NCBI GenBank assembly: GCA_964633425.1
Contig: CAZWFX010000006.1
Coordinates: forward strand, 4,955 to 68,954
Reading direction: 5' to 3'
Origin: an uncultured Candidatus Saccharibacteria bacterium
GTDB lineage: Bacteria > Patescibacteriota > Minisyncoccia > Phycocordibacterales > UBA2100
Length of the DNA: 64,000 bases
In this document: positions 1-24,331 of the stretch, one piece after another
Numbering within the stretch: the first letter of the stretch is position 1
How the letters are laid out: every line of letters begins with the position of its first letter
Program-made: the position numbers and the translations under genes
The notes under the pieces: generated by a model
Told to the model about the DNA's origin: nothing
Seen by the model: the letters and a program-made list of their open reading frames with translations, nothing else
Databases searched by the model: none

Positions 1-737
1 ACGAGCATTCGATCGATCAGGTCACCGCCCACCTCGACAGTTGATGTGAAAATCGGAACACCTCGCTTCACAACGGCAAAACCGGTGCGCGCACGTCCGA
101 AATCCACCAAGAGCGTTATCGGCTCTTCAGCGTCCGACGATGAAACCGCGCGTGCAATCGAACGCGCCTCGACCTCAAGCGAGAGCAGCGTGATACCTGC
201 GGCGGAGAATGCGTCGACGTAGGCCTGAGCCACGTCCTTTGGGAATACAACAACGCTTATTTCTTCGCTGCCGCCGTCGTCGCGTGAAAGCGTATTGTAA
301 TCATATACAGCCGCGCTCGGAGGGATGGGCACCCGACCCTCAAATTCAAATTCGATCATACCGAGCACCTGAGCGCGTGGCGTTCCGCTCGGCACCTGCA
401 TACTGAACACGTACGCAGCCTCTTCGGGCAGCGCGGCATGCGCACAATAGATCCCCTTTAACTCCTTACGCACCCCCTTGAGCACGTCTGCAAGCGCCGG
501 CACGTCATGAATGACACCGTTCATTACAATGCCTGAGCGCAGCGGAATGTCGCCGTATGTCTGCACACGAAGACCGTTCTCGGCCGAGACAAGTGTGAGC
601 CACTTAATGGATGAGTCGGAAATATCGACGCCTGCGGCACGCGGCATCAGGAGACGCGGCATCGGGAACCACCGCGTGAGGCGTCGCGAGAATGTTTCTT
701 TCGCAGCAGAAAGAGCGGTGGGATCAGAAGACCACAT
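1..737 (-). CDS. pilM: type IV pilus assembly protein PilM, N-terminal part (gene continues past window start)
   Basis: Absent from ORF track because truncated. Hand translation of minus strand from ATG 737 gives MWSSDPTALS..AAGVDISDSSIKWLTLVSAENGLRVQTYGDIPLRSGIV..ITLLVDFGRARTGFAVVKRGVPIFTSTVEVGGDLIDRML, the PilM/FtsA-like actin-fold pattern. Confidence 0.7.
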   Translation of the reverse strand, partial: MWSSDPTALSAAKETFSRRLTRWFPMPRLLMPRAAGVDISDSSIKWLTLVSAENGLRVQTYGDIPLRSGIVMNGVIHDVPALADVLKGVRKELKGIYCAHAALPEEAAYVFSMQVPSGTPRAQVLGMIEFEFEGRVPIPPSAAVYDYNTLSRDDGGSEEISVVVFPKDVAQAYVDAFSAAGITLLSLEVEARSIARAVSSSDAEEPITLLVDFGRARTGFAVVKRGVPIFTSTVEVGGDLIDRML

Positions 738-21436: not shown

Positions 21437-22204
21437 CTAATACGCCTCGCTCGCGTCCCATAGACCCTCGAAAAGGGCCTCGAACATGCCGTTGAGCTCC
21501 TGAGAGGTAATAAGAATGGCCGACGGCTTATCGAACGACGAAAAGATAGCGATCTTGTCGTCGAACAGGAACATCATGGATTTGAATTTCCCGTGCATAA
21601 CCCACGGCATGAGTCTCGGATTTCGCTCGTGACGCTCCTCGTCGGTGAGTGTGCGACTGGTACGCATACCGTCCTCCCACAAGGTGCGCGATGTGATGCC
21701 GTAGTGCTTTCGTGCGCGCAGGTAGCGGTCGGCGTACTCACGGTCGTACTCACGTAAAAAGTTCTGATACGGGGCGATGATGTCCCATTTCTTTGATTTA
21801 CAGTAAAAGGCTATGTCCATCACGAGCTTCATGCCGTCGATACCGCTGTACTGCACAACGCTCGCCCCGTCGCCGTCGGGTTTTATTTGCGAGACAAGCA
21901 ACGGGATAAGTTCCTCGAGCTTCTTTGATCGAGCTTCCAGTTCCTGACGCTGCTCTTCGACGAGTCCGCGGATGGTATCGGGCGGACACATTGAATACCT
22001 GATTTTCCCGCCTTTCTTTCGCTCGGATACAAGCCCCTTCTCGGTCAGCGTCCCGATCGCGTGATAAATAGTCGGTCGCTTAATCTTTGTCTTGTGTCCG
22101 ATCTCCTGCACGGTAAGCGCATCGGATGCGAGCCCCGCGAGATAGATCTTTGCCTCGGTGCGCGTGAGACCAAGACCAATAAGCGCGTCCTCAGTTTCGC
22201 TCAT
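21437..22204 (-). CDS. TrmB-family transcriptional regulator
   Basis: N-terminal wHTH LGLTRTEAKIYLAGL..LTVQEIGHKTKIKRPTIYHAIGTLTEKGLV. Promoter TTGACA-16-TATTGT-6-ATG. Confidence 0.7.
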   Translation of the reverse strand: MSETEDALIGLGLTRTEAKIYLAGLASDALTVQEIGHKTKIKRPTIYHAIGTLTEKGLVSERKKGGKIRYSMCPPDTIRGLVEEQRQELEARSKKLEELIPLLVSQIKPDGDGASVVQYSGIDGMKLVMDIAFYCKSKKWDIIAPYQNFLREYDREYADRYLRARKHYGITSRTLWEDGMRTSRTLTDEERHERNPRLMPWVMHGKFKSMMFLFDDKIAIFSSFDKPSAILITSQELNGMFEALFEGLWDASEAY

Positions 22205-22378
22205 AGGGGCACAATACGCGCGAGCGCCGTTATGTCAACGTGCTTTTAAACATTATTAGTCATGTTTTGAGCCAATTATTACTCTGTGTTCATCACGATT
22301 ATAAACAACCATTGGCAATTCTCTCCTACGCAATACGCTTACCAAAAGAGATCTTTGACAGCAAGAACTACGGTCTGT

Positions 22379-22493
22379 GCCTTGGTAGCTCAGTGGTAGA
22401 GCGTCGGAATTACACCTGCGAATCTGAAGTAGGTTGTGTAGCCGAAAAAGAGACGCAGTCCGAAGGTCAGGGGTTCGATCCCTCTCCAAGGTG
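22379..22493 (+). tRNA. tRNA-Val(TAC)-like gene interrupted by a 43-nt insertion (22416-22458) 3' of the anticodon loop
   Basis: Removing 22416-22458 leaves a 72-nt cloverleaf. It has acceptor GCCTTGG/CCAAGGT (G1.U72), D arm GCTC-AGTGGTA-GAGC, anticodon stem TCGGA/TCCGA with loop ATTACAC, variable AGGTC, and T arm AGGGG-TTCGATC-CCTCT. Confidence 0.55.
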
Positions 22494-22526: not shown

Positions 22527-23789
22527 ATGACCAACAAAGTCGTACATGTTATCGGCGGAGGCACTCGCGCTCGCATCGAGATTGACTCGCACGTCTACGT
22601 CGAGCTGGGTTCGAAGGCAACGGGCCCGACCGCACGAAGAATCGCGGAGCTCTGTCGCGAACACAACACCACCATGGACGTCCGGCTCCACCTCACGAAT
22701 ATGGCGGATCCGCAGAGCGGGATCGACACGAATGCCGACCTGAAGGAATTCGTACAGAGTCTCACCCGCGACATGACGACGAAGATCGTCTTTATGAACG
22801 CCGCGGTGCTCGACTTCGACCCGAGTTTTCCGAACGCAGTTGTCGGCAAAGAAGCCGGCCGACTGCGCACTTCGGACAATTCCGGCAAGCCGATCGAATA
22901 CGACTACACACTGCACCTCTCACCGAGCGAAAAGATCGTGCGACTCATCCGCGCCGAGCGGAAAGACATCTTTCTGGTGGCGTTCAAGCAGACCGACGGT
23001 GCAAGCACCGACGAGCAGTACCGTCTCGGACTGAACATGCTGAAGGCGGCGAGCGCGAACCTCGTACTCGCGAACGATCGCGCATCGAGGGCCAACATGA
23101 TCATCGTGCCGGAGGAAGCCGCGTACCACGTAACGACCGACCGCGAAGCGGCGCTGCGCAGTCTCGTCGAGATGGCGTACCTGCGCAGCCACCTCACATT
23201 CACTCGCTCAACGGTCGTTTCCGGCGAACCTGTTCCCTGGGAGTCAGACATCGTTCCGCCTGCGTTGCGTGCGGTGGTTGACCACTGTATCGATCGCGGC
23301 GCGTACAAAACGTTCCGCGGTGTGACCGCAGGTCACTTTGCGGTGAAGGTCGACGACACGACGTTCCTGACGTCGCGTCGCAAGACAGACTTCAACGACA
23401 TGAAGCGCGTCGGTCTGGTGAAGGTTCGCACCGACGGACCGGACTCCGTCATCGCCTACGGCTCGAAGCCGTCGGTCGGCGGACAGTCGCAGCGGATCGT
23501 GTTCGAAGAGCATCCGGACGCGGACTGCATCGTGCACTTCCACTGCCCCAAGAAGGCGGGTTCAGATGTGCCGACGGTTTCGCAGCGCGAGTATGAGTGC
23601 GGCAGCCACGAGTGCGGTCGCAATACGTCGCGGGGACTCCGGCGGTTCGGTAACCTGCTCGCCGTGTATCTCGACGAACACGGTCCGAATATCGTCTTCA
23701 ACAAGTCGATCGATCCGAAGGAGGTGATCGACTTCATCGAAACAAACTTCGTGCTCGAGGACAAAACGGGCGGATACGCGATCTCGTAA
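22527..23789 (+). CDS. fusion protein: CoaB/PPCS-like N-terminal domain + class II aldolase/adducin-like C-terminal domain
   Basis: N-terminal: VIGGGTRARIEID..KIVFMNAAVLDF..FLVAFKQTDG..ANLVLAND. C-terminal: GHFAVKVDDTTFLTSRR..SKPSVGGQSQRIVFEEHPDADCIVHFHCP. AAAGGA upstream of ATG 22527 (alternative 22512). Confidence 0.6.
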   Translation: MTNKVVHVIGGGTRARIEIDSHVYVELGSKATGPTARRIAELCREHNTTMDVRLHLTNMADPQSGIDTNADLKEFVQSLTRDMTTKIVFMNAAVLDFDPSFPNAVVGKEAGRLRTSDNSGKPIEYDYTLHLSPSEKIVRLIRAERKDIFLVAFKQTDGASTDEQYRLGLNMLKAASANLVLANDRASRANMIIVPEEAAYHVTTDREAALRSLVEMAYLRSHLTFTRSTVVSGEPVPWESDIVPPALRAVVDHCIDRGAYKTFRGVTAGHFAVKVDDTTFLTSRRKTDFNDMKRVGLVKVRTDGPDSVIAYGSKPSVGGQSQRIVFEEHPDADCIVHFHCPKKAGSDVPTVSQREYECGSHECGRNTSRGLRRFGNLLAVYLDEHGPNIVFNKSIDPKEVIDFIETNFVLEDKTGGYAIS

Positions 23790-23795
23790 ATATGT

Positions 23796-23830
23796 CGCCG
23801 CGGCCCACGGGCCGCGGCGTTTCTCTTTCT
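23796..23830 (+). terminator. rho-independent terminator or attenuator between the fusion gene and the MaoC gene
   Basis: CGCCGCGGCC-CACG-GGCCGCGGCG then TTTCTCTTTCT. Confidence 0.6.
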
Positions 23831-23845
23831 GAAGGAGGACATCCT

Positions 23846-24331
23846 ATGGATACCGGCCGAAAGACCATTCCGTTTACGGATCACGACGCTATCTCGAGCA
23901 TGTCGACCGGCGACACGTGGAGCACATGGAGCGAGCCGAAACTCATTACGAGCGACGCGGTCGCGGCATTCGGTGGAATCACCGATAACCATCAGTGGAT
24001 TCACGAAGATCCGACACGATGCATACGGGAAAGTCCGTACGGACGACAGATTGTCCACGGTTTATTCCTGGTAGCGCTGATCCCCTCACTCCTACCGGAC
24101 GAAGGATTCACCATAACCGGGAATCGAGTTCGCATCGTACGCGGTTTCGACCACCTGCGACTACCGTCCCCCGTATTCCCGGACGAATCCGTACGCGAAC
24201 GCATTCGACGGATGCACGCCTATCCTGCAGAAAGCGGAAAGGGCACCATAATTGAGCGCAAGGTCGAGGTGTGGGCGTTGCACGGCAAAAAACCCGCCGC
24301 ATGCGGGATCCTGAAGCTGCAATATTTTTAA
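23846..24331 (+). CDS. MaoC-like (R)-hydratase/dehydratase, hotdog fold
   Basis: FGGITDNHQWIHEDP (DxNxxHxD-type motif) and QIVHGLFL. GAAGGAGGA 6 nt upstream of ATG 23846. Confidence 0.7.
   Translation: MDTGRKTIPFTDHDAISSMSTGDTWSTWSEPKLITSDAVAAFGGITDNHQWIHEDPTRCIRESPYGRQIVHGLFLVALIPSLLPDEGFTITGNRVRIVRGFDHLRLPSPVFPDESVRERIRRMHAYPAESGKGTIIERKVEVWALHGKKPAACGILKLQYF

Follow-up and report, generated by a model that had tools for sequence, protein, structure and literature searches.

A CoaB-like domain joined to a class II aldolase fold in an uncharacterised protein family of Patescibacteria, other bacteria and large phages

What might be the business of a protein in which a domain resembling CoaB, the phosphopantothenoylcysteine synthetase (PPCS) of coenzyme A (CoA) synthesis, is joined in one chain to a domain of the class II aldolase fold? 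The question is raised by a gene, called here the fusion gene, in a 64,000-nucleotide (nt) stretch of contig CAZWFX010000006.1 from an uncultured Candidatus Saccharibacteria bacterium; this whole stretch is referred to below as the window. A first-pass annotation of the window had treated the domain combination as unusual and had suggested that the gene, together with a MaoC-type hydratase gene behind it, could belong to a small-molecule pathway of a CoA-, pantetheine- or sugar-phosphate-like kind. The encoded product is a genuine single-chain, two-domain enzyme from a large family whose members are strongly constrained and so far uncharacterised. Judged from sequence, three things appear to be new: the CoaB-like half, a paralogue distinct from CoaB itself; the fusion, so far undescribed; and an accessory motif. 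As to function, the best guess is that the enzyme works in two steps and that its substrate is a phosphorylated metabolite derived from nicotinamide adenine dinucleotide (NAD) or ADP-ribose, a suggestion that is put forward tentatively and weighed below against its alternatives.

Two domains in one chain

The open reading frame (ORF) was set at 420 codons from an ATG with AAAGGAA 6 nt 5′ of it, because a longer frame of 451 codons, TTG-started at 22434, begins inside a tRNA gene and because the alignments of homologues begin at the ATG, position 22527. An AlphaFold model with 38 homologues as input reached a pLDDT of 91.7 and a pTM of 0.88, and the packing between the two domains was also confident. 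When the PDB was searched by sequence, the full fusion protein alone returned noise only and the family profile returned 2gk4 only, and a Foldseek search of viral structures (BFVD) gave no match for the protein below E 0.1.

Taken separately, both halves belong where the first-pass annotation had placed them. In the N-terminal half, the Pfam family DFP (PF04127) matches residues 3-188 with an E-value of 1.4e-6 and 28.7 bits, above its gathering cut-off of 22. Foldseek comparison of this half with the PDB puts CoaB first (2gk4 of S. pneumoniae, E 5e-10, target-normalised TM-score 0.68; also 6th2 of M. smegmatis and 1u7z of E. coli), with ranks 1-40 all taken by CoaB, CoaBC or Cab2 chains and human PPCS at rank 49. 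A Rossmann-like fold is held in common with these proteins, as is the order of the motifs, which runs from a GGT loop through AAxxD-F, with its cation-binding Asp, and GF..T to the (L)AND strand. By alignment to 2gk4, the framework with which CoaB handles its nucleotide and Mg2+ is kept in the fusion family (GGT loop, AxxD-F, GFKxT and AND strand), and NAAVLD96F97 of the fusion protein is the equivalent of D281/F282 in the AxxD-F motif of CoaB. In the M. smegmatis enzyme, D281 of the AAxAD(F/Y) motif holds the cation and the triphosphate (PMC7794376). Conservation was read from 131 full-length family members that are 46-77% identical to the window protein; the N-domain residues conserved in at least 97% of them are G11, G12, T13, G33, D96, K136, R142, R145-K146-D147, K154, T156, K173, N178, N183-D184, P195-E196, Y200 and R206. 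By analogy, the chemistry of this domain is probably of the CoaB kind, that is, activation dependent on a nucleoside triphosphate and then coupling.

Of the motifs on which the first-pass annotation had relied, GGGT, NAAVLDF, LVLAND, FLTSRRK, KPSVGGQ and HFHCP are all present and family-wide, but 'RIEID' is a sub-clade insertion. Two extra residues at 22563-22583 (residues 13-19) yield this string in the window protein and in its closest relative, P0002, and it is because of them that a comparison with the GGTxExID of CoaB had worked; the usual family sequence at this place is GGGTvSHvRtHLAL.

Kinship with CoaB nonetheless stops short of its defining residues. Identity is ~15-20%, and R207/N211 and KxKK are lacking. 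In M. smegmatis CoaB, R207 and N211 are required in the second half-reaction, the attack by cysteine, and the K-X-K-K loop touches the CTP triphosphate (PMC7794376). In the profile alignment to 2gk4, the positions of R207 and N211 hold Leu and Ala. The KxKK loop is absent from every aligned member of the family, the equivalent stretch reading sGK108xAxR112L(r)T, and the N-x-S-S-G-K loop has given way to ApAyGxTA in most members; the sub-clade of the window protein has ..LGSKATG.. at this place, nearer to CoaB and still without the Asn and the Arg. Moreover, the NCBIfam equivalog models for PPCS score far under their cut-offs (NF005231, 23.5 against 265; TIGR02114, 13.3 against 217.2; TIGR00521, 11.2 against 219.7). 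A true PPCS is ruled out by these missing residues and scores, and they make a role in CoA synthesis unlikely, and with it the CoA- or pantetheine-like pathway that had been envisaged. On its residues, then, the fusion protein is judged not to be a PPCS of the CoA pathway, and its N-domain to be a distinct CoaB paralogue without the residues that CoaB uses for phosphopantothenate and cysteine. A six-frame motif scan of the window, a small part of the genome, found no signatures of the CoaD/NadD, CoaE, CoaC or CoaB type.

CoaBC (Dfp) offers a parallel in architecture, in that it too is a single chain uniting a CoaB-fold domain with another enzyme of the same presumed pathway. The fusion protein differs in its reversed domain order, in the catalytic residues of its CoaB half, and in having as partner a metal-dependent aldolase fold where CoaBC has the FMN (flavin mononucleotide)-binding decarboxylase, the CoaC flavoprotein.

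The C-terminal half is class II aldolase-like. Pfam Aldolase_II (PF00596) matches residues 264-341 with an E-value of 1e-8 and 35.7 bits against a cut-off of 22.2, the alignment spanning model positions 16-93 of 183, which is the first half only, and the best PDB matches by Foldseek are YgbL/OtnC, pyruvic oxime dioxygenase and FucA (E ~1e-5, ~185 columns). With this superfamily (OtnC/YgbL, FucA, MtnB, AraD, pyruvic oxime dioxygenase) the domain shares the fold, an H-x-H with a third His, and the phosphate loop K-P-S-x-G, which is kept ~20 residues ahead of the H-x-H. Conserved at the level given above are H270, S283, R285, P315-R323 (PSVGGQSQR), H337, H339, Q353, E357-C358-G-S-H361-x-C363-G and H385-G-P-N388. 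H337 and H339 map to Aldolase_II model positions ~89-91; together with H385 they make up the metal site of three histidines known from class II aldolases, and they presumably ligate a metal.

The differences lie in what has been added and in what seems to have gone. The invariant E-C-G-S-H-x-C-G motif is an addition beyond the features of class II aldolases, and no acidic residue is apparent in the PSVGGQSQR loop at the place where, by motif spacing and FucA numbering, the catalytic Glu of FucA would be expected. In E. coli FucA that residue is presumably Glu73, which follows the phosphate-binding Ser-Ser. No characterised aldolase sub-family fits, every equivalog among those tested for OtnC, MtnB, FucA and AraD scoring below 18 bits against cut-offs of 137-308 (OtnC, 17.7 against 250; MtnB, 15.1 against 226; FucA, 11.9 against 308).

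Distribution of the family and the genes beside it

Far from being an oddity of one genome, the fusion has more than 120 full-length homologues. A word-indexed protein search with the full-length query gave 3202 matches, the best 120 of which are 360-451 amino acids (aa) long, 59-100% identical to the query and nearly all full-length, with named sources in Paceibacteria, Kaiserbacteria and Vogelbacteria. A genomic scan using one genome per species found 102 copies of the fusion gene, mainly in Patescibacteria. At 46-55% identity, copies occur in Polyangiaceae/Myxococcales, Bdellovibrionales, Micavibrio and other Alphaproteobacteria, a Rickettsiales metagenome-assembled genome (MAG), Gammaproteobacteria and a few others, the records all being MAGs and some of their taxonomic labels doubtful. 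In addition, 48 viral contigs in IMG/VR carry the gene, several of them 200-570 kb long, and a 595-kb 'uncultured phage' record also holds it. The same fusion, which the first-pass annotation had proposed to look for in other genomes, recurs in bacteria of the candidate phyla radiation (CPR), in predatory bacteria and in large phages.

The N-domain by itself is more widely spread. At 50% identity its profile finds 1207 clusters, of which 239 have E < 1e-30, and the best 150 consist of 66 complete fusions, 14 with a cut C-domain and 70 with the N-domain only, some of these last being fragments. Stand-alone N-domains are encoded by cultured Pseudomonas (Otagovirus) and Caulobacter (Bertelyvirus) phages and together make up PHROG 35624, which matches the N-domain with an E-value of 3.5e-33. 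Pseudomonas phage phiPsa374 also carries one. The phage proteins (for example Pseudomonas phage PPSC2 orf72, Astolliot UOL48623 and Caulobacter phage CcrBL9 gp053c) are N-domain homologues at 28-36% identity (tblastn), 200-320 aa in length, without the aldolase-fold domain and all named 'hypothetical protein'.

That a frameshift or mis-assembly artificially fused two separate genes is refuted for practical purposes: stand-alone N-domain proteins do exist, as just described, but the same architecture of 400-450 aa is seen in independent assemblies by the hundred, covering several phyla as well as phages, the segment between the domains (EMAYLRSHLTFTRSTV) ranks among the most conserved parts of the family, and the domains are packed against each other in the model. 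The ~75 positions conserved in at least 97% of the members fall in both domains and in the linker, and both halves are thus under selection.

The sequences of the family are already public, and not unique to this genome, under the generic name 'class II aldolase/adducin family protein' and also as ribulose-5-phosphate 4-epimerase/fuculose aldolase. No description of the architecture came up in full-text literature searches or in targeted reading of a survey of NAD and ADP-ribose functions in viruses, a jumbo-phage survey and the NARP3 paper. Even on a conservative view, the generic database label stands corrected, and metabolic reconstructions must not take the N-domain for a gene of the CoA pathway.

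Gene neighbourhoods were compared at 136 loci by ORF clustering and iterated profiles. In three loci of Saccharimonadia (L027, L030 and L049) the fusion gene keeps company with genes for NrtR, TrmB, His_Phos_1, an ADP-ribosylglycohydrolase, a PncA-like isochorismatase and NAPRTase (PncB), the order being different in L049; the genes form a compact NAD-salvage island within ~3 kb either side of the fusion gene. NrtR is a Nudix-related, ADP-ribose-responsive regulator of NAD genes (PMC2330246). At four other loci of Saccharimonadia, a HIT-family gene lies 15-720 nt after the fusion gene.

Viral loci carry genes for Macro (9), ADP-ribosylglycohydrolase (7), PARP+WGR (5), His_Phos_1 (8) and calcineurin-like phosphoesterases (8). 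At one of them, L117, a same-strand run with several overlapping ends encodes a DSP phosphatase, Macro, the fusion protein, His_Phos_1, a BtpA-like barrel and cREC, flanked by Nudix and HNH genes upstream and by a 2H phosphoesterase gene downstream, with an IGPS-like barrel further on. The run looks like a pathway that processes ADP-ribose or cyclic phosphates. The Macro, ARG (ADP-ribosylglycohydrolase group), 2H and cREC superfamilies are domains for the processing of ADP-ribose derivatives, and the Nudix domain extracts AMP from NAD or ADP-ribose (PMC9503650).

An unbiased Pfam census took in the two genes closest to the fusion gene on either side. At the viral loci (130 neighbour clusters after dereplication), the families that recur most include ADP_ribosyl_GH, Thg1, His_Phos_1, Macro, M23 and Metallophos. 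The bacterial census (146 dereplicated clusters) has His_Phos_1 first (4), then NUDIX (3), followed by methyltransferases, CoaBC (2), MaoC and TrmB. The NAD/ADP-ribose signal is consistent across independent arrangements but modest, most neighbours being mutually unrelated. The neighbourhoods elsewhere thus point to genes of NAD/ADP-ribose metabolism and to phosphatases, and not to pantetheine chemistry.

The downstream slot, taken by MaoC in the window, is filled elsewhere by a cytosolic M23-like protein (14 loci) or by an unknown 110-aa protein, here called small4 (28 loci). The M23-like partner is found in Paceibacteria, Alphaproteobacteria, Pseudomonas phage Astolliot and the 595-kb phage; in Astolliot it follows and adjoins the N-domain-only gene of PHROG 35624, as it follows the fusion gene in several bacterial loci. 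This M23/LytM-like protein is 180-225 aa long, with no evident signal peptide (judged by eye on the cluster representative only), and its second zinc motif is HLH in some copies and HLE in others. Small4 ranges over Alphaproteobacteria, Myxococcota, Bdellovibrionota, a few CPR loci and some viral loci. It comes immediately after the fusion gene, in many cases with overlapping ends, and has invariant E-G, W, H-N, H-P, Q, H-D and T-x-P; its 340 homologues are all hypothetical, it matches no Pfam family, and its model (pLDDT 84) has no significant PDB match. In the large-phage loci L137-L139, small4 instead follows NT5C-like or PRAI-like genes, with T4 Rnl1-like, Pnkp-like and Acb2/Tad1-like genes nearby. 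The genes just 5′ of small4 in L137 and L139 were considered as stand-alone N-domains and rejected (hhalign probability <1%), being NT5C-like and PRAI-like.

Finally, in the alphaproteobacterial MAGs of L065 and L073 the fusion gene adjoins a full, canonical coaBC, with KIKK visible in the encoded CoaBC. The fusion gene is therefore not a coaBC replacement.

Candidate chemistry and competing explanations

Under the proposed two-step reaction, both domains would be catalytically active and would act in sequence on one phosphorylated small molecule, as the chemistry of the parent families suggests. CoaB and OtnC both use acids bearing a terminal phosphate. By enediolate-type chemistry, whether of an aldolase, an epimerase, a decarboxylase or a dehydratase, the metal domain would hold or rearrange the part that is a phospho-sugar or phospho-keto-acid. 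The CoaB-like domain, with CTP or ATP, would activate a carboxylate, or possibly an anomeric or phosphate oxygen, forming a nucleotidyl intermediate to which an amine could then be coupled. From the gene neighbourhoods in relatives, the substrate pool would be derived from NAD or ADP-ribose. One conceivable example is a NadE-like amidation of nicotinate nucleotide and another is the nucleotidyl reactivation of ADP-ribose or ribose phosphate. Histidine phosphatases could trim the product or act on the substrate, and in this genome the divergent TrmBL2-like regulator would control the fusion gene. NadE converts a carboxylate into an acyl-nucleotide that is then amidated, which is the CoaB type of reaction; the analogy to the fusion protein is functional only, with no relationship in sequence or fold.

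Several points weigh against this reading. The chemistry of the C-domain is not readable from homology, because the acid/base Glu of FucA is apparently missing (PSVGGQ). In the window, no NAD/ADP-ribose gene stands beside the fusion gene, its neighbours being TrmB, a tRNA gene, MaoC and, by motif reading, a PAP2-like ORF and an UppP undecaprenyl-diphosphatase. The neighbour censuses are heterogeneous, each ADP-ribose-related family accounting for only 2 of the 130 dereplicated viral clusters. Auxiliary genes tend to pile up in large phages, and many of the viral loci come from few related lineages. Some recurrent partners have no obvious link to NAD, namely the M23-like protein (14 loci), small4 (28), MaoC (8) and HIT (4), and the MaoC gene together with the divergent coaBC of L065 and L073 would suit a CoA-related role equally well.

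A bolder version of the proposal is improbable, though of wider consequence. It would make the family an unrecognised enzyme of the NAD+/ADP-ribose network, common to large phages and to bacteria that depend on a host, namely CPR epibionts and predatory lineages, in which CoaB-type nucleotidyl activation is combined with a metal-dependent sugar-phosphate step and which would serve phages as a counter to NAD-depleting immunity. Such an enzyme might rebuild or re-route a pyridine- or ADP-ribose-derived metabolite, in a manner analogous to NadE or Adps, or it might clear ADP-ribose derivatives, and the stand-alone N-domain, the M23-like protein and small4 could be further parts of the system. NARP operons include Macro-type ADP-ribose-1''-phosphate phosphatases (10.64898/2026.01.28.702374), and Macro-type genes are shared with many fusion-gene loci as a functional analogy only. 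In sequence and fold, the fusion protein is unrelated to Adps (PRPP-synthetase-like) and Namat (NAMPT-like) of NARP1, to NARP2, to NARP3 and to PnuC/NadR, and none of the viral loci examined showed a recognisable NARP gene next to the fusion gene. PADLOC found no match to known anti-phage defence for the fusion protein or the MaoC protein.

Much of the conflict between bacteria and phages is at present fought over NAD/ADP-ribose metabolism, and since 2024 three pathways by which phages rebuild NAD have been found. A fourth, chemically unrelated to these, would be of real interest if the proposal were true. The family would then also represent a widespread, undescribed enzyme architecture in which two well-known catalytic folds are newly joined, found in organisms that live off others (CPR bacteria, predators like Bdellovibrio, Micavibrio and Polyangiaceae, and large phages), and CPR bacteria, with their very small genomes, would have in it a regulated means of salvage.

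Among the alternatives, a role related to CoA or pantetheine starts from the closest relatives of each domain. CoaB is both the closest fold and the closest sequence family of the N-domain, and the decarboxylase OtnC/YgbL is among the nearest relatives of the C-domain; the protein would accordingly be a reversed-order analogue of CoaBC, its CoaB-like domain ligating a pantothenate-like phospho-acid, its aldolase fold serving as a non-flavin decarboxylase, and the MaoC hydratase acting on the resulting CoA- or pantetheine-thioester. MaoC-type enzymes use CoA thioesters, and MaoC is linked to the fusion gene in eight loci with differing outer flanks; a canonical coaBC is moreover the divergent neighbour in two alphaproteobacterial loci. 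This explanation is nevertheless an unlikely one, given that R207, N211 and the KxKK loop of CoaB are not conserved, that the PPCS models score ~10-fold under their cut-offs, that a full coaBC coexists with the fusion gene in some genomes and that 128 of the 136 loci are without MaoC. Phages hold the fusion gene or the N-domain alone amid genes for nucleotides, RNA repair and ADP-ribose, and decarboxylation of the cysteine moiety is known to require flavin chemistry.

Much the same low probability attaches to a catabolic enzyme of sugar phosphates (an aldolase, epimerase or dehydratase) under TrmB-type control, in which the CoaB-like domain would be only a nucleotide-binding module for regulation or oligomerisation. 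The three-histidine site and phosphate loop are conserved, the public labels name a class II aldolase or a ribulose-5-phosphate 4-epimerase/fuculose aldolase, and TrmB, the top neighbour in CPR bacteria, belongs to a family of classically sugar-responsive regulators. The regulator here, however, resembles TrmBL2, which is not known to have the sugar-binding domain; neither the 136 loci nor the bacterial census revealed recurring sugar transporter or kinase genes nearby, and all scores for aldolase-family equivalogs are far under their cut-offs. Nor does a mere accessory module agree with an N-domain that has invariant residues of active-site type (the Mg/triphosphate Asp among them, with several Lys and Arg) and that also stands alone in phages.

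Less probable again, and best described as a long shot, is an enzyme of RNA (tRNA) repair or modification whose target would be an RNA end or a modified nucleoside, or which would clear a by-product of repair such as ADP-ribose 1''-2'' cyclic phosphate. Thg1-like, 2H, cREC, Macro and phosphoesterase genes are among the viral neighbours, small4 has T4 Rnl1-like and Pnkp-like genes next to it in contigs of large phages, and in the window the fusion gene begins just past an intron-bearing tRNA-Val. Yet the RNA-repair neighbours are limited to few viral lineages, the Pfam and NCBIfam scans of the fusion protein detected no RNA-binding domain, and ARAGORN called no tRNA in the matching intergenic region of the relatives scanned, a result that does not extend to L005. 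This idea also overlaps heavily with the ADP-ribose proposal, from which it is inseparable here.

Elements flanking the fusion gene

The coordinates of the fusion gene, of its surroundings in the window and of recurrent partners elsewhere are collected in Table 1. The divergent TrmB gene, the interrupted tRNA-Val and the possible attenuator hairpin of the first-pass annotation were all borne out, and its hand count of 69 G/C-ending codons among the first 91 of the fusion gene was exact on recount.

Table 1. Positions of the features discussed, in the window unless a locus label (L) is given
Feature	Coordinates	Strand	Remarks
TrmB/TrmBL2-like winged-helix regulator	21437-22204	-	255 aa; Pfam TrmB PF01978, E 1.1e-12
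Sigma-70-like promoter match	22211-22238	-	directly 5′ of the TrmB start codon
Interrupted tRNA-Val (anticodon UAC)	22379-22493	+	Rfam 54 bits; ~45-nt insertion in anticodon loop
Fusion gene	22527-23789	+	420 aa; ATG start; stop codon 23787-23789
N-terminal CoaB/DFP-fold domain	22527-23192	+	residues 1 to ~222
C-terminal class II aldolase-fold domain	23223-23786	+	residues 233-420
Hairpin and T-rich tail	23796-23829	+	10 G:C pairs, 4-nt loop; between fusion gene and MaoC
MaoC-type single hotdog (R)-hydratase-like gene	23846-24331	+	161 aa; most likely start ATG 23846, behind AAGGAGG
Viral run L117	407-6947		same-strand ORFs; IMG/VR contig 3300031788_000446
M23-like protein	L001 9353-9913; L087 5597-6274; L088 4878-5486		also L062-L081, directly after fusion gene
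small4	L062 7784-8134; L068 6510-6890; L040 7245-7571; L134 3184-3513		and 24 other loci
Canonical coaBC	L065 4401-5681; L073 4411-5622	-	divergent, 86-130 nt from fusion gene; all CoaC and CoaB motifs

The TrmB regulator scores 48.1 bits with PF01978 against a cut-off of 25.6, and its closest solved relative is TrmBL2, of equal length (E 2.5e-4, residues 14-110). Past residue ~110 there is no match to the C-terminal sugar-binding domain of TrmB/TrmBL1, and the TrmB and TrmBL1 equivalogs give 12-22 bits against cut-offs of 500-650. A TrmB homologue lies at most 3 kb away in 41 of the 136 loci and in 34 of the 43 CPR loci, usually 60-240 nt upstream of the fusion gene on the opposite strand, and in CPR bacteria no other neighbour of the fusion gene is as well conserved. 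The promoter match before the regulator (TTGACA-16-TATTGT) agrees with the consensus at 10 of 12 positions; it is the one site found, against 1.9 expected in shuffles.

On the downstream side, the stem-loop of the hairpin occupies 23796-23819 and is followed by TTTCTCTTTC (terminator scan); the region has a minimum free energy of -29.5 kcal/mol and a folding z-score of -4.2. In this fold a second helix pairs UUCUCUUU with AAGGAGGA, and base pairing is possible between the T-rich tail and the Shine-Dalgarno sequence of MaoC. Since a strong stem-loop with a different stem sequence stands at the equivalent place in 7 of the 8 MaoC-carrying loci, the hairpin is a conserved element of a terminator- or attenuator-like kind.

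The MaoC frame runs from 23792 to 24331 in the ORF list. Its product matches Pfam PF01575 (E 3e-11, 43.4 bits against a cut-off of 27), and its closest solved relative is Rv0130 (E 3.6e-13). The pairing of fusion gene and MaoC held up in the window, where the two are direct neighbours and the hydratase is confirmed by Pfam, but it is confined to this Paceibacteria-type sub-clade (8 of the 136 loci, all with close relatives of the window protein). Because the outer flanks of these eight loci differ, TrmB, the fusion gene and MaoC travel as a unit within the sub-clade.

The fraction of G or C at third codon positions (GC3) is 0.774 in the fusion gene, against 0.66 +/- 0.06 for 34 long ORFs of the window. 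This is high but no outlier, at 1.8 standard deviations above the mean, as two ORFs of the window are higher, and a recent transfer argued from base composition was set aside as weak on the same figures. The 'accessory' character that had been ascribed to this block agrees with the sporadic distribution of the fusion gene across phyla and phages; base composition lends it little.

The insertion in the tRNA-Val folds as a stem of its own (CUGCG...CGCAG). The fusion gene starts 34 nt past the 3′ end of the tRNA, with which it may be co-transcribed. ARAGORN found no tRNA between TrmB and the fusion gene in nine related loci. It misses the window copy too, so that the same interrupted tRNA in the 97%-identical L005 cannot be judged by this program. 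Finally, ARAGORN placed a tRNA with the anticodon TTA ('tRNA-Stop') at 63-136 (+) of L006, a Paceibacterota contig that also carries the trio of TrmB, fusion gene and MaoC, and this may be an ochre-suppressor or recoding tRNA.

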